From the IMG/VR virus record IMGVR_UViG_3300030514_000001, positions 64,001 through 128,000 of that record: a stretch of DNA of 64,000 nucleotides. One strand, given 5' to 3'. Position 1 is the stretch's first letter. Each line of letters opens with the position of its first letter. The translations under genes and the position numbers were made by a program. Source of the stretch: a virus (lineage: Duplodnaviria; Heunggongvirae; Uroviricota; Caudoviricetes; Herelleviridae). This document shows, piece by piece, positions 5,872-20,074 of the stretch. The notes beneath the pieces were generated by a model that did no database searches, was not told the DNA's origin, and was given only the letters and a program-made list of their open reading frames with translations.

Positions 5872-6478
5872 TCTATCGAGACGCGCTGTAAGTTTTCTGG
5901 GTGAGTTAAACAAGTTAGGTAAACGTTTTGAGAACGCACCTCAAGAGATAAGGTTGTTTGTAAGCGGGGCTAAACCAGCACTAGCCCTTACTTGCAATCA
6001 TAACTATGCAAACCTTTTAATGAAACACTATCCTAGTATTACAAGACCATTACAAGGTACAACATGTGTGTACATATTTAATGACTATAGTAAAATGTAT
6101 GCACACATGAACAATCTTAGACTAATAGATAGTAGCGCACTAGGCGAACCTATTTTAGTACATACATTCGAAACGTTAGGACTAGCATTAGGTTATCCAC
6201 CATCAGCTTGTAAGTGGTTTGAGGAGTATAGAGGTATAAGTGGTGTACCACCAGAGGATAAGAAAAACGTGTGTGTAGTTTATTATCATGGTATGCAGTT
6301 CTGTACAATGCAACACTTATTAGAAGAAAATATCCAGTGGCTTTATGATAACATACAAGTAGCAGACGAGTTTAAAACAGCAGCTTATGTGGAATACCCT
6401 TACTTCGAAGACGAAAACGGAGAGGTTATACGAGTTAGAACGAAAAAACCATCCTTGGAGGTAGAAAATGTTCGATAA
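5852..6478 (+). CDS. hypothetical protein
   Basis: 208-aa ORF with GLALGYP motif; start uncertain. Confidence 0.7.
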   Translation: MISMSSNLSRRAVSFLGELNKLGKRFENAPQEIRLFVSGAKPALALTCNHNYANLLMKHYPSITRPLQGTTCVYIFNDYSKMYAHMNNLRLIDSSALGEPILVHTFETLGLALGYPPSACKWFEEYRGISGVPPEDKKNVCVVYYHGMQFCTMQHLLEENIQWLYDNIQVADEFKTAAYVEYPYFEDENGEVIRVRTKKPSLEVENVR

Positions 6479-6602
6479 TGATTTACATAACATGGGTTAC
6501 GCTATTATATTTTTACTGGTAGTTATGGTTATTGTAAAGGTTTTAGAGAGGAAACGTAAGTAGCAGATTGGAAAACCAATAAAAATTAGGGGGCAATATA
6601 TA

Positions 6603-6899
6603 ATGAGTAGCGATACAGGAGTTTGTAGTTTTTGCGGAGATACTTTTTCTAGATGTGGTGACCATGAATCATGTGATTGTGGTAAAAGTTGGTGTAGTAA
6701 GAGCTGTGCAGAGGCGGATGGATTACAAGAAGAGGAAAACGGTTATATTCCTCCGGGAGAAGCATGGGAGCAGGATTCTAGCTGTGACTATTGTAGAAAA
6801 GAAGACTACGACGATAGCGAGCTATTAGAATATGTATTGACTAAACTACTTAATATGCATCGTTATGAGTTAGTAGCGCACTATAACGCGTCAAAATAG
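6603..6899 (+). CDS. Cys-rich putative zinc-binding protein
   Basis: CxxC, CxC, CxxxC, CxxC motifs. Confidence 0.75.
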   Translation: MSSDTGVCSFCGDTFSRCGDHESCDCGKSWCSKSCAEADGLQEEENGYIPPGEAWEQDSSCDYCRKEDYDDSELLEYVLTKLLNMHRYELVAHYNASK

Positions 6900-6917
6900 C
6901 AGTAGAAGGTTAGAAAC

Positions 6918-7050
6918 GTAGCAGCCCACTGTAAAAGGTGGGCTTTTTACTTAGTAGCAGACTGTAAAACTCGAAGCCTAGTAGCGGACTGTAAAAGGTA
7001 GTAGCTCCCCACAAAAAAACCTTAAAACGTAAGTAGCGCACCACAAAAAG
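6918..7050 (+). repeat. cluster of GTAGC-N5-7-(TGT/CAC)AAAA direct repeats
   Basis: copies at ~6918, 6954, 6981, 7001, 7033; a related copy at ~6560. Confidence 0.65.
6923..6948 (+). terminator. intrinsic terminator
   Basis: AGCCCAC/GTGGGCT stem plus T tract. Confidence 0.75.
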
Positions 7051-7267
7051 CCGCGCCCGGCAAGTACGATATAGCGATTCAAATATTCTGACAATTGATA
7101 AGTGTTACAAATTGAAAAAGTTCCCTTATATAGAAGGAAAGCGAAAAGCCTATTTTTTTTCTTTATATAGGAAGAAACACGAAAAACGAAAAATATATAA
7201 AATTGTTGTTGTCTTTTAGTAAAATACATGATACGATGGTATCAACTTAATAAGGGAGCTGGTAAAC

Positions 7268-7486
7268 ATGAGTTTAAAATTAATGGATGCAAACATGATT
7301 ATACCTATTACAGAGGGAGGCGTTACAAAACATTACATTACCGATGCGCCTCACTTCTTAGTAACAGAAATGTTTTTAAAGGTGGATAGCGTAGAGGAGC
7401 TTATAGAGTGGTTAACGGATGGGATTAACTACAATTATCAATTTCACGAATACACTTTTTCATTAAAATTAAATTTCGATGAATAA
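7268..7486 (+). CDS. early hypothetical protein
   Basis: follows promoter-RBS repeat. Confidence 0.8.
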   Translation: MSLKLMDANMIIPITEGGVTKHYITDAPHFLVTEMFLKVDSVEELIEWLTDGINYNYQFHEYTFSLKLNFDE

Positions 7487-7551
7487 AGCTGTTGACTTTT
7501 AGTAAAATAACTATTAGAATGAAAGTAACTTAAAAAGAGGAGCTGTTTTAT

Positions 7552-7764
7552 ATGTGGAAAAAGAAAGAGATTCAAGAAATGAATGATAGTGAGTTAATAA
7601 GTGCTTTTCACTGGAATGTAGTCCGCGTAACAAATGAGACAAATTCCATGCGCGGGGTTACACAAAAGAGCATTAAGGAAGAAAAATATATTTTAGATGA
7701 AATGATTAAACGTTTTAATCTTGACGTTGCTGTTTTAAAAGAAAAACAAATTATTAACGAATAG
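7552..7764 (+). CDS. early hypothetical protein
   Basis: follows promoter-RBS repeat. Confidence 0.8.
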   Translation: MWKKKEIQEMNDSELISAFHWNVVRVTNETNSMRGVTQKSIKEEKYILDEMIKRFNLDVAVLKEKQIINE

Positions 7765-7778
7765 GGGAGCGGTTTATT

Positions 7779-8078
7779 ATGACTAAACAATTTAAAACTT
7801 TAGGCGGTATGTTACGTAGTGTAAAAGCTACGTTAAAACGCGACGGTTACACACTAAGCCACGAAGGAAAATACCGATATGGAAGAGGTTTGCTTGTTAC
7901 TAGTAATGAATGGGATTTAATTACTATAGAACAAATTAATTTGCAAGGTCACCAGATAGACGTTGTTGACGTACCAGAGCTATTAGAACTATTAAAAGAG
8001 TATAACGCATATTTAAAAATTGAAACGTTTATGCTTGGAAAGACATTGAAAACAATTAGAATAAAATTTAATAATTAG
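7779..8078 (+). CDS. early hypothetical protein
   Basis: SD GGGGAG; stop lies inside next repeat. Confidence 0.8.
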   Translation: MTKQFKTLGGMLRSVKATLKRDGYTLSHEGKYRYGRGLLVTSNEWDLITIEQINLQGHQIDVVDVPELLELLKEYNAYLKIETFMLGKTLKTIRIKFNN

Positions 8079-8141
8079 TTGTTGACTTTTAGGAAATGCG
8101 CATGATACAATGAGGGTAACTTAATAAGGGGGCTGTTACAT

Positions 8142-8312
8142 ATGAAAGCGATAGATAAATCACTTGCTTGTATTAACCTAAATATAGTAGAAAGACGCTT
8201 AAAAGATTTAATCAGCATTGTTGAGAATGGCGGTACTATCAGTACAGATATAACGTTACAATACATGTTAGAGGATGTTTTAAAAGTAAAAAGAGTATTA
8301 GAGGAGGAATAA
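8142..8312 (+). CDS. early hypothetical protein (56 aa, not in track)
   Basis: ATG directly after repeat; MKAIDKSLACIN...VLEEE*. Confidence 0.75.
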   Translation: MKAIDKSLACINLNIVERRLKDLISIVENGGTISTDITLQYMLEDVLKVKRVLEEE

Positions 8313-8317
8313 AACAT

Positions 8318-8410
8318 ATGTCATTCAGAGGCTCATTAAAAGTATTGGTTATTGTTGGTTTCTTGTTTCTGGTAGGGCGTGGTATATCATACGCAATCGT
8401 ACACTTTTAA
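8318..8410 (+). CDS. 30-aa membrane peptide (not in track)
   Basis: GAGGAGG SD; MSFRGSLKVLVIVGFLFLVGRGISYAIVHF*. Confidence 0.6.
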   Translation: MSFRGSLKVLVIVGFLFLVGRGISYAIVHF

Positions 8411-8480
8411 AAATAGTTGTTGACTTTTAGTAAAATAAGGTTTAAAATGAAATTAACTTAAATAAAGGGAGCTGTTAATT

Positions 8481-8633
8481 ATGGAAATATATGATGTATA
8501 TAGAACAGAATTAAAGTTTTTCCCGCTAAAATGTAAAATGTTTATGAAATACAAAGTTGTAAGCTTACCTCTTATGACTGATAGCTTTTGGTATGATTTT
8601 ATGCAACGTATTGCAGGTATGAAAAAATATTAA
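8481..8633 (+). CDS. early hypothetical protein (50 aa, not in track)
   Basis: fills the interval between two repeats exactly. Confidence 0.75.
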   Translation: MEIYDVYRTELKFFPLKCKMFMKYKVVSLPLMTDSFWYDFMQRIAGMKKY

Positions 8634-8705
8634 AAAATAGTTGTTGACTTTTAGTGAAAGATAGCTTAAAATGAAATTAACTTAAGAAAAGGGAGATGTT
8701 TTATA

Positions 8706-8897
8706 ATGAACAAAGAAAACATGGATAAAATTCAAGGGCTTGTATTACAATGTAAGGAGGCGGGGTTGTCTTTAGATAGCGAGAATGTGAAAAAAGCTAT
8801 CGCGTGGCATTCTAGGGTATTTGATATCTCTGTAGAGGTTATAACGGAAACAATGCAAGAAATGTGGGGTAAAACACGAATTAAAAAAGGTTACTAA
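8706..8897 (+). CDS. early hypothetical protein
   Basis: cassette between repeats. Confidence 0.8.
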   Translation: MNKENMDKIQGLVLQCKEAGLSLDSENVKKAIAWHSRVFDISVEVITETMQEMWGKTRIKKGY

Positions 8898-8975
8898 AAA
8901 TAGTTGTTGACTTTTAGAAAATAGTCATGATACAATGATTACAGAAATAAAAAACATATAAAGGCGGGATATTAA

Positions 8976-9188
8976 ATGAATTATACAGAATTTTTAGAAG
9001 GTAAAAAAATGCACATAGGTATTATGAAGAAATATGATACATTAGAGGACTTCATGAACGCTTTAGACACATGTTTTGACTTATATGAACTAGGGTATTG
9101 CTCACAAGAAGAACAGCTTATCTGGGAAGAAATGAGCGAGATGTCTGCACTAGAAATATATGGTTTGTGGGTTGAATCTAAGAAATAA
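8976..9188 (+). CDS. early acidic hypothetical protein
   Basis: cassette between repeats. Confidence 0.8.
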   Translation: MNYTEFLEGKKMHIGIMKKYDTLEDFMNALDTCFDLYELGYCSQEEQLIWEEMSEMSALEIYGLWVESKK

Positions 9189-9268
9189 AATAGTTGTTGA
9201 CTTTTAGAAAACATGCATGATACAATGATTACAGAAATAAATAAAACATATGAAAGAAGGAATTTAAA

Positions 9269-9586
9269 ATGGAAATCAGAAAAATTAAGTGGAATGTAGA
9301 GTTTAAAAAAGAGATGTCAGAGCTTGAATTATACGGTATTGAAAGTGTAATCGATAATTATTGGTATGATGAAACATTTGATTTCGATAGTGAAGTGTTA
9401 GGGCTTGCTTATACATCATCTAGTCAATACGCAATGTATAACGTTTGTAACGGTGATTTCACTTATTATGATGAAGATTTAAGCGAAGATTTAACAATTA
9501 GTCATTTCGCGGTAACAAGTACAGGTCACTTAGTAATGATATGTAATGATAGAATAGAAAACGAATTTATGTTCGAACTCGTGTGA
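9269..9586 (+). CDS. early acidic hypothetical protein
   Basis: follows repeat; 3' end overlaps ribozyme. Confidence 0.8.
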   Translation: MEIRKIKWNVEFKKEMSELELYGIESVIDNYWYDETFDFDSEVLGLAYTSSSQYAMYNVCNGDFTYYDEDLSEDLTISHFAVTSTGHLVMICNDRIENEFMFELV

Positions 9587-9644
9587 GCGAGTATAAACAG
9601 GCTTTAGGCTCACAGCGTCGCGGGGTTTATCCCCTGCGGGTAGC
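9577..9644 (+). ncRNA. pistol self-cleaving ribozyme
   Basis: P1 ACTCG/CGAGT, loop TGTGAG, ATAAACAG, P2 GCT/AGC, pseudoknot GTGAGC/GCTCAC, AGCG, P3 hairpin, GT cleavage dinucleotide 9640-9641. Confidence 0.88.
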
Positions 9645-9732
9645 AACTAAAATAAAATTTTAAATAGTTGTTGACTTTCTGTAAAGAAGGGTTTAAAATG
9701 AAAGTAACTTAAAAAAAGGGAGATGTTTTATA

Positions 9733-10614
9733 ATGACAAAAAAATTAACGGTTGGTCAATATGATGTACTAGAGGTATTAGGCGATGAACAAGACGTGTT
9801 AGCACAATTCAATGATTATGACGGTTCAACATACATTTGCGATGCTATTCAAGAAATAGCAGATAAGGCTATACCATACCAAAATTATAAATTATGGGAA
9901 AACGCGCCAAAAATTCAAGATTCAATAGAGGAGGCTATAGACAGCGGTTTATGTGAAACGGCGCGCGGTGAACGTCCCGACTTAATTAAAATTTTCACAG
10001 CCGGACATTATCAATACTACTCACAACTATTATACGATAATGAGGGAGTTATGTATTATGATTACATTGCTACAATCGTTAATAATTGGTTGGAAGGGCT
10101 AAATCATGACCAATTAGAAAAGCTAGATATTGACGAACTCGACGAACGTATAGAAGAGGAAAAAGGGAATATAGATAATAACGATTATATGGAAGACTTG
10201 GAAGACATCGCAAAACGTATTATTGCAGAGTTTAAAGGAAAAGTTAATAAAGATGCAAGATGGACGAATTACGGCGACGTGAACGCTTTAGAGCATGGAG
10301 GCGACTTTATTAAAAAAGATATTGATTACCCGCTTGACAAGTGTTATTACTACGTTAAAGTGATTAATATGTATAATGCATGTGGTGAAGATGGTTACAG
10401 AGTCGAAGAGGGATATATAGACTTAAATGATAGTTGGATTGATTGGAACGCTGTAGAAACTACATGCGACGTAACAGACCGTGACGAAATCAAAGTCATT
10501 GACGTTGTAAGTTATTACGGAATGGAAGAGTTTAACGGAGAGGCATTATCATTTGATGATGAAACAGAGGTTTTAGAGCATTTAGCAACAAAAGGAATTT
10601 GTATCGAAAATTAA
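9733..10614 (+). CDS. Ocr-like (T7 gp0.3-type) acidic DNA-mimic domain fused to an unknown C-terminal domain
   Basis: DAIQEIADKAIP...DSGL...DLIKIFTA..Y aligns with recalled Ocr DAIHMAADNAVP...DSGL...DVIRILQA..Y; very D/E-rich. Confidence 0.7.
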   Translation: MTKKLTVGQYDVLEVLGDEQDVLAQFNDYDGSTYICDAIQEIADKAIPYQNYKLWENAPKIQDSIEEAIDSGLCETARGERPDLIKIFTAGHYQYYSQLLYDNEGVMYYDYIATIVNNWLEGLNHDQLEKLDIDELDERIEEEKGNIDNNDYMEDLEDIAKRIIAEFKGKVNKDARWTNYGDVNALEHGGDFIKKDIDYPLDKCYYYVKVINMYNACGEDGYRVEEGYIDLNDSWIDWNAVETTCDVTDRDEIKVIDVVSYYGMEEFNGEALSFDDETEVLEHLATKGICIEN

Positions 10615-10676
10615 TTGTTGACTTTTAGAAAACACACATGTTACAATAAGGGTAACTTAATAAGGGGGGTTACATC

Positions 10677-10934
10677 ATGCGAGATATTGAATACATTCTA
10701 GATGACTTGGAAAAGTGGCGTGATATTCTCGAAGACCTATCTATCATGCATAAGTTAGAAACAACTAAAGAAGGTCTTGACCACTTTGAAAACGAAATCT
10801 CTTTTGCGCTTGATAAGATTGGCGACTTACAACGTGAGTTAGAAGAGGCAGAAAGAGAAGAGGCTAAACGTTTTAATACCGCAAATGAACGCGCTATGTC
10901 AGAGGCGGGACATAATGAAAGGGACTTCCTTTAA
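10677..10934 (+). CDS. early acidic coiled-coil protein
   Basis: follows repeat. Confidence 0.8.
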   Translation: MRDIEYILDDLEKWRDILEDLSIMHKLETTKEGLDHFENEISFALDKIGDLQRELEEAEREEAKRFNTANERAMSEAGHNERDFL

Positions 10935-10967
10935 AAAAAGGAGGTTCCCTTGTTGGGAGGCTAGGAA

Positions 10968-11138
10968 ATGAATGTAAATAGGCTCTATATAATTCATGAG
11001 TTAGCGCGCGTAAAATTGCATTATGGAGGAATTAAGCAAAGACATCTAGAGAGAAGAGCGAAACAATTAGAAACAACGCCTAAAAATCTTATGATAGCTG
11101 TTAATAGGTATATAACGAAACATAACGGAATCATTTAA
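10968..11138 (+). CDS. early basic protein (56 aa, not in track)
   Basis: GGGAGG SD; stop abuts next repeat. Confidence 0.7.
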   Translation: MNVNRLYIIHELARVKLHYGGIKQRHLERRAKQLETTPKNLMIAVNRYITKHNGII

Positions 11139-11209
11139 AAATAGTTGTTGACTTTTAGTAAAAGATAGTTTAAAATGAAATTAACTTAAGAAAAGGGAGA
11201 TGTTTTATA

Positions 11210-11551
11210 ATGATAGACTACAATTATTACGGTACTAAAGGTATTAAAGCGACAACGCACGTTATTAATGAAGATAAACTAATTTACGAAATTGTTTCAT
11301 ACACACAATTACAAAGTTCTGATATATGTTTCTTGTATAACCTTGAATTGGTGGCGGGATATGATTACATTAATCCAGACTATAACGACATACAAGGCTA
11401 TGTATCTAAAGAGAACTTTATAGAAGATATCCACTTTGAACAATTCACATTTTACGCTATGTCAGAGTCATTAACAGAGGCGTTAACAGACCACGGTTAT
11501 AAAGTGATTGATATTAACGATTACAAGATACACCAATTTAAAGGGTGTTAG
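11210..11551 (+). CDS. early hypothetical protein
   Basis: follows repeat. Confidence 0.8.
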   Translation: MIDYNYYGTKGIKATTHVINEDKLIYEIVSYTQLQSSDICFLYNLELVAGYDYINPDYNDIQGYVSKENFIEDIHFEQFTFYAMSESLTEALTDHGYKVIDINDYKIHQFKGC

Positions 11552-11661
11552 GCGCTCATACAAAGCGTTTACCCCTTTCTAATACAAATAGACAAGAATT
11601 AAAGTGAAAACGTTGTAAGAGGTTGTGAATAGCCTTAAAATAAATACTAGAGGTGTTATAA

Positions 11662-11850
11662 ATGGAAAAAGCAATCGATATTTTAAAAGGTGAACTAGAA
11701 AAGGCTAGAGAAGAGCTTGACGACGCGGAAAAGATTGAAAGAAGTTTTTACCCGTGGAAAGATAGTAAGATTTATAAAGCAATTGGTAAGATTAACGGTT
11801 TAGAGGATGCTATAAAAGAAATAGAAAAAGAGATGCAAATTAATTGTTGA
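11662..11850 (+). CDS. early hypothetical protein
   Basis: GAGGTG SD; stop inside next repeat. Confidence 0.75.
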   Translation: MEKAIDILKGELEKAREELDDAEKIERSFYPWKDSKIYKAIGKINGLEDAIKEIEKEMQINC

Positions 11851-11907
11851 CTTATAGTAAAGTACATATTATAATGAAATTAACTTAAATAAAGGGAGTT
11901 GTTAATT

Positions 11908-12189
11908 ATGTTCGCGGTTGAAAAAGCAGAAATGAATTTATTGAATAAAATTGAAATTACAAAGGGTACAACGTTAAAACTATTAACAGGTGGTATGGAA
12001 TTTTATATGCTGGTGGATGTAGAACGCGTTACATTAAGGGGAGTCGCTGATTTATTTGAAAATGATATTGATTATATTTCAATCGAAGTTAATGACCTGT
12101 TCAAGCGTTGGGGACGTGAAAACCCTTTAACAGAATTACAAGAAATGTCTATATTATTTCATCAAAAAATAACTTTAATACAACGTTAA
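11908..12189 (+). CDS. early hypothetical protein
   Basis: start moved to ATG 11908 to fit the repeat SD. Confidence 0.75.
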   Translation: MFAVEKAEMNLLNKIEITKGTTLKLLTGGMEFYMLVDVERVTLRGVADLFENDIDYISIEVNDLFKRWGRENPLTELQEMSILFHQKITLIQR

Positions 12190-12257
12190 AAATAGTTGTT
12201 GACTTTTAGGAAACAATAGTTTAAAATGAAATTAACTTAAAAAAAGGGGTTGGGAAT

Positions 12258-12521
12258 ATGGACTACAAAACAATGAACGCGGTTGAGCTATTAGAAGAGA
12301 ATCTAATCACAATGGAAAGCACAAAAGAGCTTTTAGAAATGCAAATGTTGAATGCACAAGAAAGACACGAACACTACATATATACAACTGGTACACATAA
12401 ATTAGAAATGATTTCACTTGTTACAAAAGAAATTAAGGCTATTAAATCACATATGTTAACAGTAGAGCTACAATTAAAACAATTAAGCTCACTTATTAGA
12501 ATATTAAAGGGGGAAAATTAA
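12258..12521 (+). CDS. early hypothetical protein
   Basis: follows repeat. Confidence 0.8.
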   Translation: MDYKTMNAVELLEENLITMESTKELLEMQMLNAQERHEHYIYTTGTHKLEMISLVTKEIKAIKSHMLTVELQLKQLSSLIRILKGEN

Positions 12522-12653
12522 AGTGAAAAGTATTATCATCGGTACGTATTCAGAGTTTGCGAAAAAGATTTTAAGTAAAGTCGGTACACATGGAGCGAAA
12601 AAGTTAATTGTAGCATTGCAAAAAGAAATAGATGAAAAGGAAGGTGAAAAGTA

Positions 12654-12887
12654 ATGTTATTTACAGCAAATAAATATAGTTTAAAAGAATGGATTAATAA
12701 CATATATCAGGGGTATATAGAACCAGAGGACATAGAGCCGGAAAGCATTAATACTATCTATATAGCATGCATTAAAGAAAGGTGTCATGAAGAAATAAGC
12801 GGGCGGAATAGAATGGACTTTTGCCCAAAATTAACTATGACTATTAACAAGCTAGAAAGATATATTATAAATCGTTTATCAAACTAA
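12654..12887 (+). CDS. early hypothetical protein
   Basis: AAGGTG SD. Confidence 0.7.
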   Translation: MLFTANKYSLKEWINNIYQGYIEPEDIEPESINTIYIACIKERCHEEISGRNRMDFCPKLTMTINKLERYIINRLSN

Positions 12888-12907
12888 TTAAAGGGAGATG
12901 TTATACA

Positions 12908-13099
12908 ATGAATACAACTATTATGAATGTAAAAGAATATAATAAGGCGCGTGAACTTGTCAAACTACATAAGGAGGGTGAATATACACAACTAGCTTTT
13001 AAAATAGCTGTTATATATGATACACAAGATTTTAGATATATTTCGAATGTTATGGAAATGTATGTTAAAGAGACAGGCGGGGCGGGTAATGGATATTAA
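12908..13099 (+). CDS. early hypothetical protein, paralog of 16417-16590
   Basis: LV.L...G....LA..IA..Y...D...IS.VM shared. Confidence 0.75.
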   Translation: MNTTIMNVKEYNKARELVKLHKEGEYTQLAFKIAVIYDTQDFRYISNVMEMYVKETGGAGNGY

Positions 13100-13337
13100 C
13101 GAAATCATTATAACAGGCGCTATAGGGCTTACATGCGTTGTTAGTGCTTGTTATAGTACTTACATAATAGGATACAATAAAGGCGTATCAGCGACTCAAA
13201 AAGCCGTCACAAGGCTAATAGAGGATGAAATAAAAGAAATCGATACAAAGAAGTGTGAAATAACCTTTAAATAGTTGTTGACTTTTAGAAAATATACATG
13301 ATACAATGAGGGTAACTTAATAAGGGAGCTGTTACAT

Positions 13338-13517
13338 ATGAATAAATTTTATGGTTATATTTCAAAAGAAAATAAAACTTCTCTTTTCGGTTATGAACTA
13401 AGTTTAAGGGAACAAGGTTGCAAGCCTGTTATGTTAGGTGAAGATGATAAAAAGTATTATGCTATCTATTTAGCGGATAAAAGCCTAAAAAACTTGGAAG
13501 AAATAAAGAAGTATTAG
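13338..13517 (+). CDS. early hypothetical protein (59 aa, not in track)
   Basis: ATG directly after repeat; MNKFYGYISKENK...IKKY*. Confidence 0.75.
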   Translation: MNKFYGYISKENKTSLFGYELSLREQGCKPVMLGEDDKKYYAIYLADKSLKNLEEIKKY

Positions 13518-13644
13518 AAGGTCAATTTTATAATATACCTAATCAAGTAAAACCACACTTTTAAAAATAGTCGTTGACTTTCAGTAAATAAAGGTTTAAA
13601 ATGAAATTAAGTTAAAAAAACAAATTAAAGGGAGCTGTTATACA

Positions 13645-13935
13645 ATGTCAATTAAAGGAATGGAATACTTTTTAGAAGATACTTTTCAAGAGTTAGGCGC
13701 GAACTATAATAGACTGACAATAGCGCATAGGTATAAAATAGGTCATCCAAGTAATGAAGTTATTATATCATACGGTATCAACGGCAACAACGAAGAAGAA
13801 TATAAGTTATATACAGGTAATGGAAAACATACAACCGTAACAAATAGTAAAGACGTTCTGTATTTAGCTTTAGAACATGTTTTAAAGGCTTACAGCATCG
13901 ATAAAAACTATAGCGCATACTTAGAGGGGGTTTAA
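13645..13935 (+). CDS. early hypothetical protein
   Basis: follows repeat. Confidence 0.8.
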   Translation: MSIKGMEYFLEDTFQELGANYNRLTIAHRYKIGHPSNEVIISYGINGNNEEEYKLYTGNGKHTTVTNSKDVLYLALEHVLKAYSIDKNYSAYLEGV

Positions 13936-14139
13936 ACAATGTATATTATAACAGCTATTTTCGAGAATTGCGAACAGGATATAGGAAAGGCTATTTCTAA
14001 AGAAGAGGCTTTACATATATGCGAGGCACATTATAACACAACAGAACAGGCGGAAAGTTACTTAGTGACAGAAAAAGGATACAAAGTATTTGCAATTAGT
14101 TTTTAATATATAAACTACCCAATCAGAGGAGGAAAAACA

Positions 14140-14394
14140 ATGGCTAAAATAGAAGAGATTGAAAAAGGGCGTTACATGGTTGTACTATCACAAGCGGAAT
14201 TGAATACAATTTCATTATTACTGGGAGCATACGAAGGTGACGACTATATCAGAGAAATCGGTGAAGACTTCGAAGACTACCCACATGAGCCGGATAACAC
14301 GAATAACAACTACGTAACAGGCGTTGAAGGGGATAACCTATTCCATGCATTCAAGAAGCATAGAACGGTTCTAGAAGACAGAGAGGGGCTTTAA
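14140..14394 (+). CDS. early hypothetical protein
   Basis: AGAGGAGG SD. Confidence 0.8.
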   Translation: MAKIEEIEKGRYMVVLSQAELNTISLLLGAYEGDDYIREIGEDFEDYPHEPDNTNNNYVTGVEGDNLFHAFKKHRTVLEDREGL

Positions 14395-14570
14395 AATGCA
14401 ATTACAATTAAAGGTTAAAGTATTATTAGAAGATGGAAGAGTGTATATAAAACCGGATGATGTAAACGAAATGGAAAGCACACTAGAAGAAATGAATATC
14501 AAACACTTTGTAATACCTATTAACAGCTACATGACTATGATTGAGTTAAATATAGAGGAGATGTAATATA

Positions 14571-15041
14571 ATGAGCTACAAGGATAACGTATATATAACA
14601 GAGAATAGATTGATTGAAATGTACACAAACGAACAAGAATTTGAGAAGCTTAATCAAGGTCATGTATGCAAAGGAAGTACAATATATAAAGAGGGACTAC
14701 ATACAATCGTATTCAAGGCAAAAGCGAAATGTATTACTAACTTTGTAAAAGGTCAACCACTAAGCCGTGAAGAAGGTTATCACATGTATATAACACCTTA
14801 TGCACTAGTGGACATGACCGACGTTAATACCGTTGAACAATGGAAGAAAGATAAAGATACAAGTGTAGAGCGTTTAAGCGACATCTGGGAGCTATTAGAG
14901 AAGACTTGCAACGAACTAGACCATTTACAACGAAATCATATTATACTTGAGTCAGATACACGTAAAGCCGTTGAAAAGGTAATGAAACAGGTAGAGAGTT
15001 TAGCAGAATACAAAATAAAAGGAAACAACCTATACTTATAA
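14571..15041 (+). CDS. early hypothetical protein
   Basis: GAGGAGATGT SD motif. Confidence 0.8.
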   Translation: MSYKDNVYITENRLIEMYTNEQEFEKLNQGHVCKGSTIYKEGLHTIVFKAKAKCITNFVKGQPLSREEGYHMYITPYALVDMTDVNTVEQWKKDKDTSVERLSDIWELLEKTCNELDHLQRNHIILESDTRKAVEKVMKQVESLAEYKIKGNNLYL

Positions 15042-15059
15042 TAAAGGAGCTGTTTGATA

Positions 15060-15389
15060 ATGACATTCTTATCAAGTAAAGAAATATATAAAAGAAACTG
15101 TGAACTTATCGCAAAAGAGTTTACAAAAGGTAATGAATACATTATAGAAGAAAGAGTAATGAAAACAACAGGTTCATATAGATATAAAGTAAATCTAAAA
15201 CATATTGATACGGTTATACTTGTTAATTATAATAATGAAACATATAAGTATGAGGGGTATGTACAATGCAATCACCCGGAATTTCACCAAACATTTAATA
15301 TAGAATCAGAAATAACAATGGAAATATATGATTTCATTCAAAGTAAAGTAGAAATGATAACAAGCATACTCATATATTATAAAGACTAA
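15060..15389 (+). CDS. early hypothetical protein
   Basis: AGGAGCTGTT SD; ATG 15060 fits spacing. Confidence 0.75.
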   Translation: MTFLSSKEIYKRNCELIAKEFTKGNEYIIEERVMKTTGSYRYKVNLKHIDTVILVNYNNETYKYEGYVQCNHPEFHQTFNIESEITMEIYDFIQSKVEMITSILIYYKD

Positions 15390-15818
15390 CACCTAATACA
15401 TATAGAAGGGAGCTGTATATTATGCGACTAACTAATGAAGAACGTATTAAAAGATTGTCAGAACTAGGAAAAGAAATAAATAAAGAGTATGCACTATATA
15501 AAGAAGCTCAAGATAATAATGATAGGGAAAAAGCAGAAATACACGCGGACAAATACGATATACTTATGAATGAGAAAAGAGAACTACTATTTGATTAATA
15601 TATAATAAAGGAGATACTAAATAATGCACATCAAAGAGTTAGCAGGGAAAAGAGTACAGCATAAAGACGGAAACATATATTATATAGATAGTGCTATGCA
15701 TACAAGTAATGATGTAATACTATTCTTAAAGGCGCAACCTGATACACCTATTAAGCGTACAGTGAGTTACTTTAAAATAGATATAGAATACATAATACTA
15801 TAAAAGGAGCTGTATATA

Positions 15819-16019
15819 ATGTTAGACATGGAAAGATATATAAATAGACATGTAACACTAGATGTAATAGTGAGTAATAAAACATATCAAATAAGCGGAA
15901 AGATTGTAGAGGTAAACGCGAACATAACAAAACTAGCTATATATAAACATAGAAGGTTAACAAATAGATATATACCTAATGAGGATATTGTAGGTATAGA
16001 GGATACAACAATACTATAG
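15819..16019 (+). CDS. small beta-rich protein, possibly Sm/SH3-like fold
   Basis: INRHVTLDV...ISGKIVEV...YIPNEDIVGIE pattern. Confidence 0.7.
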   Translation: MLDMERYINRHVTLDVIVSNKTYQISGKIVEVNANITKLAIYKHRRLTNRYIPNEDIVGIEDTTIL

Positions 16020-16040
16020 ATAAAAAAGGAGCTGTATATA

Positions 16041-16238
16041 ATGAATGGTTTTGTATTAGTAAATAGAGAAGGATTAAGAGGTTTGTTTGTCAGATATAAT
16101 GAAGACATAGAGTGTATAGATATAAGGATAACTATAGGATGTATTGACAATGTATCGAGTGAGTTTACAATGAGCATAGAAGACTTTATATTCATATACG
16201 GGCATTTAGTGGAATTAGGTCATTTAGTAGAGGTGTAA
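16041..16238 (+). CDS. early hypothetical protein
   Basis: AGGAGCTGTA SD. Confidence 0.7.
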   Translation: MNGFVLVNREGLRGLFVRYNEDIECIDIRITIGCIDNVSSEFTMSIEDFIFIYGHLVELGHLVEV

Positions 16239-16416
16239 CACATATTATATATAATAACAGCTTGAAAAAGTTAAACAAAATAACTAGATAAAAATAATCC
16301 AAGCCCCAGCTTTTGTATTTGATGACCTGCTCACACTAGAGTATATAAGTTGCATCTATAAGAGGAGGCGGGGCGCGGGCTATTAATATATGAAAATTTG
16401 AAAGGTGGAATATATA

Positions 16417-16590
16417 ATGATAGATTATTCAGAAATCGAAAAGGACATAGACTTTGCTGTGGATAGATTGGTACAATTGTTCGAAGATGGTGATGGGGTT
16501 CGATTAGCGGGTGAAATAGCGAACTTATATAATAGTAGTGATGTTAACTTTATAAGCGTTGTTATGGCAGAGTTTAAAGAATCTATATAA
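16417..16590 (+). CDS. early hypothetical protein, paralog of 12908-13099
   Basis: AAGGTGG SD before ATG 16417; shared motif. Confidence 0.7.
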   Translation: MIDYSEIEKDIDFAVDRLVQLFEDGDGVRLAGEIANLYNSSDVNFISVVMAEFKESI

Positions 16591-16599
16591 TGTAAGTAG

Positions 16600-17570
16600 T
16601 CAACTGCAAATAACACAAAAAGACTAGTAGCCCGCTGGAATACTAGTCTTCACTATATCTCTTATCCACTTGACAAACAAACGCCTTATATATCATAGAC
16701 TGACAATTCTGAAAACATGAAGGTTATATCCTAATAGTAAGATGTGTAATTTGTCAGAATATTATATACAGCTTGCTAAACGTTTATTTGTCTGCCACTT
16801 ATACTATATGATATGCAAGTGAATTGCAATAGGTGACAAAAAGTAAAACTATTCTCAATAGTCGCAATTATCAGATAACTTTATTATATATAATAAGAGA
16901 ATGATTATAATGTGCAGAATAGTATGACAATTAGGACAGTTCGTGCTGCTGCAATAGACAGAATAGTCAGTTAATTATAATTAGTATAATCTATATAATA
17001 TTCTGATAATTCTAAATACTTTAGGATAGTTGTCTAAATGTTCAGATAATTTAGAGTATATAATTAACTTGACAAATGGTAAAATATATGATTGGAGCAG
17101 TTGTGTTAATAGTCTTACAATTCTGAATACATAATTAACTTGACATATATAATAGGTCGTGGTATATATAGGGAGCTGTTTGAATAGTGTTAATATTCAT
17201 ATTATTTATAATATTCTGACAATTTATAAATCGGGTTAAAATACAGGAAGCCGAGAAGCCTTGATATGACTAGGTTTAAGAGTCCATTTCCTCCGTATGA
17301 GCTTCTAGCAGTCTATCTAATACACTTGTGAGGGGTAGGGCTTAGAATCACTGTACGAGGCTGTGAGAGGCTTTAAAATAGATTTGACAAATTCATAGAT
17401 ATATGTTATATACGTACGCGCTTGTACATGTGTTATATAGAGGAAATAGTTATTATAATATTCTGACAATTCTGAATAGTTTTATTTTAATTAATTGGAA
17501 TAAAGGGCTTGTCAATTGCGTATAATAGTATTAAGATAAGGGTAGTTAAAACAGAGCGGCAACGAATTGA
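16600..17570. other. ~1-kb non-coding control region with ATATTCTGACAATT repeats and tandem promoters
   Basis: no ORF in track; repeats at 16998, 17211, 17458, inverted at ~16750; TTGACA-17-TATATA at 17139 and 17385, TTGTCA-17-TAAGAT at 17509. Confidence 0.7.
16615..16794 (-). ncRNA. candidate ~180-nt structured antisense-oriented RNA
   Basis: - strand TTGCAA-17-TAGTAT promoter (16829-16801), long G-U-containing stem, - strand terminator 16650-16617. Confidence 0.5.
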
Positions 17571-17639
17571 AAATAGTTGTTGACTTTTAGTAAATAAGAT
17601 GATAAGATGAAATTAACTTAAGAAGAGGAGCTGTTATAT
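17571..17639 (+). promoter_or_regulatory. outlying copy of the promoter-RBS repeat
   Basis: AAATAGTTGTTGACTTTTAGTAAA...TAAGAT...AACTTAA...GAGGAGCTGTT. Confidence 0.85.
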
Positions 17640-18140
17640 ATGAAAACATTAGAAATGGGTCAATTAGAATTGGGTATGGAGGTACGCATCACAACTAAAT
17701 TAGGTGACGAAAAAGTGTTCGAAGGAAAGGTGATTGACTTCTCAAGAATGCAAACGCAAGTATGGATTGAAAATGAGGTTGATATCTATCGCTTTAATAT
17801 GCATCATGTAGAGGTTGTACTAGTGGAGCAGGAAGAGGAGCGCGCACCAGATGGACTAAAGACTCTTAAGGAGATTAAGGAGGCTATTGCAGACGAATTA
17901 AAAGGTCAATGGTATGAGGAGATTGAAAGCGTGAAGGTTGCCGTATATAATAGCGATGAGGACGGAGCAGAGGTATACGACTGTGAAGTTCAAATTGTAC
18001 TTGACAACGGCGAGTCCATCTATCCTACATTTGGCACTTTCTATAATGAAAAGGACGCGCTTGCATACGCTCGTACTATGCGTACTAAATTAAAGCGAAC
18101 TTATGATATTAGCGAGCAGGTGTTTGTATACTCTTGCTAG
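17640..18140 (+). CDS. early hypothetical protein
   Basis: follows repeat. Confidence 0.85.
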   Translation: MKTLEMGQLELGMEVRITTKLGDEKVFEGKVIDFSRMQTQVWIENEVDIYRFNMHHVEVVLVEQEEERAPDGLKTLKEIKEAIADELKGQWYEEIESVKVAVYNSDEDGAEVYDCEVQIVLDNGESIYPTFGTFYNEKDALAYARTMRTKLKRTYDISEQVFVYSC

Positions 18141-18193
18141 TATGCCCAGCTAGTACCATATATTAAAATTACTATATAAAGGGAGATGTTATT

Positions 18194-18544
18194 ATGTTAA
18201 CTGTTAATATGGAGCTTGCTATTATGGAATTAAAAGGGATTGCTAGTCATGCTACCCACCTAGCAGACCAGTGGGAACGTGGGTTTGATTATACTACTGA
18301 CTTAGTAAATGATATTAATAAGCGTCTGATTAAAGCGTGTGAGCATATAGAAGGGGCTTTCAATGACACGCGTAATGGTATCATAGCTATTGAATTAGAC
18401 TTCATTGAAGAACGCATTTCAAAGGTATATAATGGCATCTATATGAATGATAGAGTCACGAGTGTTGGACTATTGCACCTAGCACAAGCATGCTATCAAA
18501 CGTGTATGACTATCACTCGATACGCGATGGAGGTGAGAGCCTAA
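18194..18544 (+). CDS. early hypothetical protein
   Basis: GGGAGATGTT SD. Confidence 0.8.
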   Translation: MLTVNMELAIMELKGIASHATHLADQWERGFDYTTDLVNDINKRLIKACEHIEGAFNDTRNGIIAIELDFIEERISKVYNGIYMNDRVTSVGLLHLAQACYQTCMTITRYAMEVRA

Positions 18545-18945
18545 TATATTATATCTTCATTCATTAATATTCTAGATTGTCAAGTATTATTTTGTCAACC
18601 CTTTTCTATATTCAATTTCATAGATATAACCCACCCCGTGCTTTATAGACCATACGTTCGGGGATGGTACCTACCCACCCTCTACTTGGGGTTCAAATTT
18701 TTCACAAAAAATTTTTTAACCTAAATTAAACGCATCTTAAACGTAAATGTTATTACCACCTCCCTATCTCGTACATAATGCCATACAATCTATACCGCTT
18801 ATTATAAGGAGAGATATAATAGCTGCTATTACTAGTCTAGGTGTTATACGCATCTCCCACCCCTTATAAGCTTCTATACTATTCATTATCATATCGACCA
18901 AGAATAGCATCGGCATATACATGAGCATCGAACCCACCCATATAC

Positions 18946-19095
18946 TTACCACGTTAATACTCCGCATAATATATTGAAAGCAGCCATGAATAACAATAAC
19001 GTGCTTAATGCTTTACCCTCACTACCTCTGTTACTCTCATTATGTACGAAGCACCCTAATAGCATGATACCTACACCTAAGTTAAATATTCCCAT
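18946..19095 (-). CDS. small membrane protein (49 aa, not in track)
   Basis: follows family 2 promoter (TTGACT at 19153-19148) and AGAGGAGG SD. Confidence 0.65.
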   Translation of the reverse strand: MGIFNLGVGIMLLGCFVHNESNRGSEGKALSTLLLFMAAFNILCGVLTW

Positions 19096-19244
19096 CGTTA
19101 TTACCTCCTCTTTGTTATACCTTTATAATACACCATCATTAACTTAAAGTCAACAATAAAATACGAAATTTTTTCGGAGCAATGAATATACTATATTGTA
19201 TTATTTACATGTATGAATATAATAAGTAAAGGAGAAGCGACCTA

Positions 19245-19430
19245 TTACAGTCGCTCGATAAATGTTAATACAGTGTATATGATTATTGTCGTCCCTGTCC
19301 ACGTTACAAGAAAGGCATGTAATACTAGCTTACTTGTTTTATATTTACGGATGTTTGTGATTCCTATTATGAATTTCCATGCTGACACGAGGAATATTGC
19401 TAATACACTAAGTAGTGCTGCTATCTCCAT
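19245..19430 (-). CDS. small membrane protein
   Basis: two hydrophobic segments. Confidence 0.7.
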   Translation of the reverse strand: MEIAALLSVLAIFLVSAWKFIIGITNIRKYKTSKLVLHAFLVTWTGTTIIIYTVLTFIERL

Positions 19431-19621
19431 TCGTCATCCTCCTCCCAGTAATATACACGTTCTATTGAATCGAATAAAATTAAGTCTGGGTCATCTTCTA
19501 CCTTTAAAAGTGCAGATACTACATTGTCTGTTGTGTATGTAATATCTGATAACCCACCTGTCGGGTAAAACTCCGGTATATCGAATATCCAGTATCTATG
19601 TTTTAAATTAACTTCTTCCAT
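19421..19621 (-). CDS. hypothetical protein
   Basis: ORF with SD. Confidence 0.7.
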   Translation of the reverse strand: MEEVNLKHRYWIFDIPEFYPTGGLSDITYTTDNVVSALLKVEDDPDLILFDSIERVYYWEEDDEWR

Positions 19622-19633
19622 GTGTATCGCTCC

Positions 19634-20074
19634 TTATCCTCGTAGTTTATTTCCTGTTTTATCGTAGTAGGTGCATGTGTTCTTTTCATGGTCGTCGATA
19701 AACCCATAAATAGTATTTCTACCTAGCTTATATGTATAGAAACGTCCTTCACCATCTTCATATAGATAGTATTTATTCTCTTTGAATGCCTTAAGCCTAT
19801 TTTTGGCTTGGTCTAGAATATGCCATAGTGTCGGTACTTGACCATTATGTTTTTTCTTAATCTTACGTAACTTCTTCTGTAGTCTGTAGTTACCTACTAG
19901 CGTTTTCTTATATGTATGCTTAAGGTTGATTAAGGTTACTGTATGGAATGAGTCATCCAATTCCCCTAGACCTCTATAAAACCCTGACGCACTCTTGATT
20001 GGTTCATTCTGTACGAATGATGATTTCGTTCCTCTAAACTTATGTAACTGTCTTACGCGTGTATGTCTTGTCAT
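19634..20074 (-). CDS. MTRHTR-family protein
   Basis: MTRHTRVRQLHK...GELDDSF. Confidence 0.8.
   Translation of the reverse strand: MTRHTRVRQLHKFRGTKSSFVQNEPIKSASGFYRGLGELDDSFHTVTLINLKHTYKKTLVGNYRLQKKLRKIKKKHNGQVPTLWHILDQAKNRLKAFKENKYYLYEDGEGRFYTYKLGRNTIYGFIDDHEKNTCTYYDKTGNKLRG

Follow-up and report, generated by a model that had tools for sequence, protein, structure and literature searches.

A pistol ribozyme between a stop codon and a promoter in the cassette array of a Bequatrovirus-like phage, and its probable role in RNA punctuation

A full-length pistol ribozyme is found at the end of a small gene in a Bequatrovirus-like phage, where it occupies the slot between the stop codon of that gene and the promoter of the next cassette. 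We propose, with a probability of roughly 60%, that it provides protein-free RNA punctuation and 3′-end formation, cutting the read-through RNA of a terminator-less promoter array at G9640|U9641. The window analyzed is a stretch of 64,000 nucleotides from the phage genome, and all coordinates refer to it unless stated otherwise (Table 1).

Table 1. Features of the ribozyme region and its surroundings in the window
Feature	Position	Strand	Basis or remark
Intrinsic-terminator-like site before the cassette array	6923..6944	+	8 pairs and T run
Seventh and last promoter-like site before the ribozyme (upstream cassette)	9197..9226	+	Consensus matches only
105-aa acidic ORF, PHROG 4874 (unknown function)	9269..9586	+	E 3.5e-42
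Pistol ribozyme (RF02679), full length	9577..9645	+	Rfam match, single genome copy
P1 with 6-nt loop (9582-9587)	9577..9592	+	Sequence; strands 9577-9581 with 9588-9592
Pseudoknot	9582-9587 with 9609-9614	+	Read from sequence, 6 bp
P2	9601-9603 with 9642-9644	+	Read from sequence; only three standard pairs
Catalytic strand	9607..9617	+	Purine-32 G9607, G33 G9608, pseudoknot 9609-9614, G40 9615, C41 9616, G42 9617
P3 hairpin, 8 pairs	9618-9625 with 9632-9639 (9618..9639)	+	About -13 kcal/mol
Predicted cleavage site G9640-U9641, between P3 and P2	9640..9641	+	Junction in the Rfam alignment, invariant in 11/11 copies
Promoter-like site of the next cassette	9671..9699	+	-35 box starts at 9671, 31 nt past the predicted cut
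293-aa ORF, PHROG 3460, Ocr-like N-terminal half	9733..10614	+	PHROG 2568 match; Shine-Dalgarno-like run starts at 9715
Hairpin without U tract over the stop of ORF 10677-10934	10919..10951	+	-18.2 kcal/mol
Hairpin without long U tract over the stop of ORF 11210-11551	11540..11578	+	-15.1 kcal/mol

A cmscan search of the 64-kb window with Rfam 15 gave one match at gathering level, to the pistol family RF02679 (71.5 bits against a gathering score of 34.5 bits, E 4.6e-11, model positions 1-68 of 68), and this is also the only pistol in the whole genome of 161,203 nt, a virus record that is estimated to be complete. Neither a tRNA nor an HDV-like RNA matched at gathering level in the window, no other ribozymes appeared between 6500 and 20000 at E values up to 5, and a genome-wide search for type II hammerheads, run without a positive control, was negative. 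All four class features that can be assessed in a sequence are present: the score, the helices (P1, P2, P3 and a six-pair pseudoknot that joins the P1 loop to the P2-P3 junction), the core bases and the two-base G-U junction. By fold and core bases the GC-rich element is a full-length pistol ribozyme, for which self-cleavage is predicted. An earlier, sequence-only reading had named the element a pistol, placed it here and proposed an Infernal search with the Rfam model as a check; the significant covariance-model match over the full model, together with the sequence itself, bears out identity and place. The same reading had put the cut at G9640|U9641, with the next promoter some 30 nt beyond. 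The predicted site agrees with the invariant junction of the Rfam alignment and with the P3-P2 junction at which the class is cleaved (Harris et al. 2015, PMC4604425), and the promoter distance is as described. Two details had to be corrected. The pseudoknot had been counted as seven pairs; the pistol class has six pairs and a G40·(G33-C41) triple (PMC6154101), and the real count is 6 bp. Because Rfam pairs G9608 with C9616, as the G33-C41 pair, G33, G40 and G42 are assigned to 9608, 9615 and 9617, respectively. In the class G33 serves as the binding site of the catalytic Mg2+, and G40 is accepted as the base (PMC7027511). The guanine in the linker before P2, which had been suggested as a target for mutation, is not among these catalytic guanines.

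Comparative evidence for the fold comes from an alignment of 11 copies (nine from herelleviruses, with those of phages MaeS and PBC4), in which only the four alignable base pairs of P3 were counted. In this alignment 99.0% of 209 cells are paired, and 11 of the 19 counted pairs have changes on both sides. None of 500 shuffles reached the observed pairing and covariation, and slid registers gave at most 45.9%. Double changes occur in one of five counted pairs of P1, five of six in the pseudoknot, two of three in P2 and three of four in P3; P1 is 100% paired throughout, with five double changes at a single pair. The core AAA linker, G9608, G9615, C9616, G9617 and G9640-U9641 are invariant in all 11 copies, and the purine at position 32 is G in nine and A in two. 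The ribozyme is better conserved than its surroundings: the window copy and that of Jabberwock are 97.1% identical, whereas the flanking genes reach only 76.3% and 74.6%, and identity to the B4 copy is 94.2% although the upstream gene of B4 is unrelated. The C30-1 ribozyme keeps the fold at just 55.4% identity.

When nested folds of the window copy are compared, with pseudoknots not scored, the fold lacking P1 has an advantage of 5 kcal/mol over the one in which P1 is forced. A competing fold lacking the 5′ strand of P1 is present in six of the 12 copies folded and missing in the other six. Given this more stable P1-less fold, cleavage of the window copy may be incomplete. Seven runs of RNA libraries, all from soil, were identified with 5-7% of words shared, and the contigs of four of them were compared with the site. 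These contigs, from a relative, cross the site unbroken from 9192 to 9741 or further; such contigs hide RNA ends and may be DNA, and they speak neither for nor against cleavage.

The best matches are to Bequatrovirus and Bastillevirus (Herelleviridae, Bastillevirinae), phages of the B. cereus group, and the source phage is Bequatrovirus-like. The region around the ribozyme is an array of small genes that stand behind a repeated block of promoter and ribosome site. From the terminator-like site to the ribozyme there are seven promoter-like sites, followed by another seven in the stretch 9671-13574, all of them consensus matches; going by these promoters, the array is presumably early. A terminator scan of 6000-20000 called four sites, compared with 4.5 in shuffles, and those on the plus strand are at 6923, at 10284 (weak and inside a gene) and at 18677. 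No intrinsic terminator was called between 6944 and the ribozyme. The ribozyme itself, which has an A-rich tail and no U tract, was not called either, and because of the missing U tract no release of the polymerase is predicted there. The protein encoded upstream contains 22 Asp/Glu and 6 Lys/Arg residues and has six homologues only, with no Pfam family and no atlas match. Residues 2-172 of the 293-aa product encoded downstream match PHROG 2568, 'ocr-like anti-restriction', with E 1.5e-33, a similarity at the profile level; a search for PDB sequences gave no match with E below 0.27. Joined to the Ocr-like half of this protein is a second acidic domain (PHROG 12969 and its relatives), which also has separate matches in other Bacillus phages. 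Most cassette junctions of the array have no structure at all. The two hairpins listed in Table 1 are conserved: the one at 10919-10951 recurs in five of six relatives folded, LY2 having a different hairpin, and the one at 11540-11578 in all three relatives folded. They are candidate 3′ stabilizers, weak terminators or RNase III sites.

As the sequence-only reading had noted, the ribozyme overlaps the end of the upstream ORF, with the last codons in P1 and the TGA (9584-9586) in its loop. Among relatives the 5′ end of the ribozyme lies within -10 to +3 nt of a stop codon in all ten herellevirus copies examined, and the extent of the overlap varies. The 10-nt overlap, seen in the window, Flapjack, Jabberwock and OTooleKemple52 (4/10), is the commonest form and is also found at six of six metagenomic loci. 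The other six of the ten copies overlap the stop by 0-1 nt, five of them by none. In C30-1 the same protein end, with the same last three residues, is combined with an overlap of just 1 nt; in B4 an unrelated upstream gene ends 2 nt before P1; and in SWEP1, Chotacabras, LY2 and LBC2 a third type of upstream gene ends 1-3 nt before P1. The PBC4 and MaeS copies are spaced 14 or 20 nt from the stop. On the other side, the gene that follows is not Ocr-like in SWEP1, Chotacabras, LY2, LBC2 and two of the six metagenomic loci. In these four phages the Ocr-like gene is displaced downstream by one or two cassettes and stands behind uncut promoters. The -35 box lies 25-26 nt behind the ribozyme in seven of nine herellevirus copies, and OTooleKemple52 and C30-1 have variant promoters that the promoter pattern missed. 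Since neighbors and overlap vary while the spacing is kept, the fixed feature is the slot between stop and promoter. Eight of ten bases agree between the end of the C30-1 gene and the start of the window ribozyme, and the overlap could have arisen simply, by deletion between such look-alike stretches. The stop-codon overlap is likely a matter of gene packing and not a switch. A read-through variant of the upstream protein was also considered. One database homologue (P0004) ends seven residues later, but the TGA is unchanged in all six metagenomic loci retrieved with it and a pattern search of viral contigs gave no sense-codon variant, so the extension is most likely a gene-calling artefact in which TGA was read as Trp.

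The distribution of the element was followed in the best 46 of 78 matching records, which represent 34 phage names. The ribozyme is present in 42 of these 46 records, or 31 of the 34 names. A blastn match at 84.8-98.7% identified 39 of the records and Rfam three more (C30-1, LY2 and LBC2), and the Rfam check was run directly on nine of the 31 carrier names. Every carrier examined has a single pistol at the same position of the array. Bastille, Goe5 and Anthony have no pistol genome-wide, according to a search that found pistols in others, one search set lacking a positive. By record taxonomy Anthony is classed as Bastillevirus CAM003 and belongs to the same species as the carrier CAM003. In all three phages the upstream cassette and the ribozyme are both missing, and the Ocr-like gene follows a bare junction of stop and promoter, with neither a ribozyme nor a hairpin before its promoter. 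The existence of three close phages without it means that the ribozyme is dispensable, at least together with the upstream gene. No other ribozyme replaces the pistol in nine non-carrier loci. In the pistol-less phages BCP78, TsarBomba, FADO, 2S-4 and Staley, a homologue of the upstream gene has a stem-loop directly behind its stop (5/5); those of BCP78, TsarBomba, FADO and 2S-4 have no clear U tract, that of 2S-4 having been read by eye.

The hairpins in BCP78 (locus L014, 2771-2800) and TsarBomba (L142, 1771-1800) are GC hairpins that resemble P3 of the window, and Staley (L145, 1780-1850) has a long stem of about 25 pairs. A 10-letter pattern common to P3 and the BCP78/TsarBomba hairpin has no second site in those genomes. 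Common descent of the two is not claimed, as the pattern was made after they had been seen and P3 differs in OTooleKemple52 and C30-1. TsarBomba carries a homologue of the upstream gene at two places, one near each genome end, which is consistent with a terminal repeat.

Placement behind stop codons extends to phage pistols in general. A core pattern applied to eight of 64 parts of IMG/VR gave 121 loci, and a scripted pairing test picked the same ten of 20 loci as Rfam. After 41 loci with short flanks and duplicate sequences had been dropped, 42 unique pistols were left. Of these, 24 start within -2 to +8 nt of the stop of an ORF of at least 60 aa, compared with 2.0-3.2% of random positions; the window of -2 to +8 was chosen post hoc, the ORFs are mechanical, and related phages are counted as they stand and are not independent. 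With a limit of 100 aa the number is 12/42, where about 1% is expected. Within -12 to +15 nt of a stop there are 30/42, and on the opposite strand 2/39 for this same window. Among the 38 pistols with both boundaries, 20 start in -2 to +8, against 6.2 expected for even placement within their own gaps, and in 100,000 simulations a count of 20 never occurred. The upstream gap has a median of 4.5 nt and the downstream gap one of 133.5 nt.

In the mechanism that we consider, the host polymerase would outrun the ribosome, so that the ribozyme RNA could fold and cut itself soon after synthesis, at about ten cuts per minute if it behaves like the L. sphaericus pistol. On the upstream piece P3 would remain as the last hairpin, followed by a cyclic phosphate; such an end resembles that of a terminated message and would slow 3′ exonucleases. 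The downstream piece, held by the three P2 pairs, would begin with a 5′-OH, from which an A/U-rich stretch of 74 bases leads to the next ribosome site, and RNase J1 would trim or remove it. Expression of the downstream genes would then come chiefly from their own promoters, and each half of the array would decay independently of the other. In B. subtilis, RNase J1 degrades the 5′-OH fragment that self-cleavage of glmS releases, and PNPase is stopped by hairpins (PMC3328962, PMC11780869); this RNase behavior is taken from B. subtilis and not from the B. cereus group. Because initiating ribosomes or a strong ribosome site can block RNase J1 (PMC10810187), the downstream piece may also survive as usable mRNA. 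The position of the element would suit such a role. Bacillus terminators lie a few bases behind stops, as transcription outruns translation (PMC7858274), which explains the stop-proximal placement without a switch.

The proposed cut would not stop the polymerase. Cleavage of an RNA does not by itself release the enzyme that makes it, and because of this the idea of the sequence-only reading that the ribozyme stands in for a terminator can apply only at the RNA level. There it fits the terminator-like place, the seven promoter-like sites and the absence of a called intrinsic terminator between 6944 and the ribozyme. RNA punctuation is further favored by the constancy of the ribozyme position among relatives in which one or both of the neighboring genes have been exchanged, and by the other stop-proximal structures, namely those of the five pistol-less homologues and the two conserved array hairpins. 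The three non-carriers and the many array junctions without structure count against it. Release of the polymerase could be added by torpedo termination, in which RNase J1 enters at the 5′-OH, catches the polymerase and removes it before the next promoter. The -35 box that comes next is 31 nt past the predicted cut, and RNase J1 can dissociate stalled B. subtilis polymerase, a route that has been raised for glmS (PMC10810187). However, the same source describes the catching of elongating complexes by RNase J1 as not established, and at about ten cuts per minute (PMC4604425) the polymerase would usually be hundreds of bases away. This makes torpedo termination the least probable of the options discussed here. 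Extending RNA punctuation to phage pistols as a class, as catalytic terminator stand-ins at stops that would cap the upstream RNA with a hairpin, hand read-through RNA to RNase J1 and perhaps remove the polymerase, is a tentative suggestion that we regard as more doubtful than the role proposed for the window copy.

Other roles can be weighed against the variation among relatives. The sequence-only reading had linked the ribozyme to the Ocr-like gene, and the element could specifically insulate or time this anti-restriction gene by removing read-through RNA ahead of it. The Ocr-like gene is indeed the usual downstream neighbor, also at four of the six metagenomic loci, and the annotated gene after the MaeS pistol encodes an antirestriction protein as well. 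At six loci, however, a different gene follows, and in Bastille, Goe5 and Anthony the Ocr-like gene is retained without any structure ahead of its promoter. This speaks against a special link and makes specific insulation or timing very unlikely. No better are the chances of a translation-sensing switch, in which ribosomes that end in the P1 loop unfold the ribozyme and cutting rises as upstream translation falls. In its favor, the commonest form has the stop within P1, the footprint of a ribosome positioned at a stop 1-3 nt ahead of P1 would extend over P1 as well, and the competing fold without the 5′ strand of P1 occurs in half of the copies folded. This fold is missing in the other half, however, the overlap in relatives is 10, 1 or 0 nt, PBC4 and MaeS have spacings of 14 or 20 nt, and ordinary hairpins of the array overlap stops too. 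The codon overlap had been taken as a sign of coupling to translation termination; with the same protein and a 1-nt overlap in C30-1, and none in five relatives, this is not supported, and uncoupled Bacillus transcription accounts for the placement without regulation (PMC7858274). Finally, the ribozyme could be a near-neutral passenger at a recombination-prone cassette boundary, active and of little consequence for the phage. Its absence from three of the 34 phage names in the best 46 of 78 matching records agrees with this, and the high identity could reflect recent exchange through the repeated promoters. A passenger is unlikely, though, in view of compensatory changes in all four helices across diverged copies, of its occurrence just once, at a constant place in the array, in all carriers examined, and of its retention through several swaps of both neighbors.

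Comparison with known systems places the element within its class. With the pistols described by Harris et al. (2015, PMC4604425) and the env25 structures (PMC7027511, PMC6154101) the window copy shares P1-P3, the six-pair pseudoknot, the core and the G-U junction of RF02679; it differs in that P2 has three standard pairs only and P1 also encodes the end of a protein. Like glmS of B. subtilis (PMC3328962, PMC11780869, PMC10810187), it would cleave within an mRNA and leave a cyclic phosphate and a 5′-OH open to RNase J1. The glmS ribozyme, however, lies in a 5′ UTR past the promoter of the gene it regulates, depends on a metabolite and stays on the downstream piece, whereas the pistol is found where a gene ends, ahead of the promoter that belongs to the next gene, is not known to bind a ligand and would stay on the upstream piece. 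Bacillus intrinsic terminators likewise lie a few bases behind a stop and leave a 3′ hairpin (PMC7858274), but they have a U tract where the window element has an A-rich tail. Early mRNA of the B. subtilis phage SP82 is cut by host RNase III (cited in PMC4838370). The likeness, in that early phage transcripts of the host polymerase are cut after they have been made, is a functional analogy only: the SP82 sites need a host nuclease and a long stem and leave a 5′-phosphate, whereas a pistol needs no protein. Parallels to the SP82 cutting exist in SPO1 and T7. Theta ribozymes of gut phages are also small self-cleaving phage RNAs with a proposed processing role (PMC10879173), but they have an HDV-like fold and tRNA neighbors, neither of which the window contains at gathering level.

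The element itself is an ordinary member of the pistol family that would not surprise a ribozyme specialist, and its value is as a cultured test system. Pistols have already been described as common in Firmicutes and in the neighborhood of phage genes, the phage genomes in RefSeq 64 contain copies (PMC4604425), and general phage context for such ribozymes is available (PMC8782182). Our literature search returned no paper on a pistol in the Bastillevirinae or on stop-codon placement, and the 2015 alignments may already list near-identical copies; a survey of Bastillevirinae introns that used Rfam makes no mention of pistols (PMC11878797). According to a 2019 review, the roles of bacterial self-cleaving ribozymes are largely elusive, glmS being the only well-understood case and the processing of polycistrons only suggested (PMC6765202). 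Most pistols come from uncultured DNA, and the type found in the window is common to at least 31 named, cultured phages, many of which were grown on B. thuringiensis kurstaki. Because natural carriers and non-carriers share a genus and, according to record taxonomy, a species, the function of a pistol in a phage can be tested. If the class-wide role as terminator stand-in were true, the Bastillevirinae copy would be the first with a role that can be demonstrated in a cultured lytic phage.

Several pistols outside this phage group were encountered. An unrelated uncultured phage contig (L060, reverse strand, about position 874) has the same first 42 ribozyme bases and a TGA overlap of 10 nt behind a different upstream gene. 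The PBC4 pistol (L012, 1992-2062, plus strand), identical in BCPST, BCP6 and BSG01, represents a second, unrelated group of B. cereus phages (Sejongvirinae) and lies 14 nt behind the stop. Psychrobacillus phage Perkons gave a partial match. The record named Microcystis phage MaeS (L011, 2002-2074, plus strand), whose host label may merit a check, has a pistol closely resembling those of the Bacillus phages; the annotated antirestriction gene starts 50 nt further on, with no promoter match in between. In the actinobacterial Gordonia phage GMA2 a minimal pistol with a 3-pair P3 (56.8 bits; KR063281.1, 60023-60079, minus strand; L013, 2001-2057, plus strand) lies 4 nt behind an annotated tRNA-Trp at the head of a tRNA cluster, and by analogy with the proposal for theta ribozymes a role in tRNA processing is possible. 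One contig combines a pistol with a nearby type II hammerhead (L023, 298-367 and 1184-1251), another has a pistol upstream of a GOLLD RNA (L030, 1184-1250 and 1551-1933), and tandem pistols occur in L073/L074, L088/L089 and L115. In the window, a repeated A/T-rich motif of 24-26 nt is clustered in non-coding DNA around 17 kb (16695-17481), and one copy precedes the array at 7071-7096; it is possibly a genome-end or replication signal.
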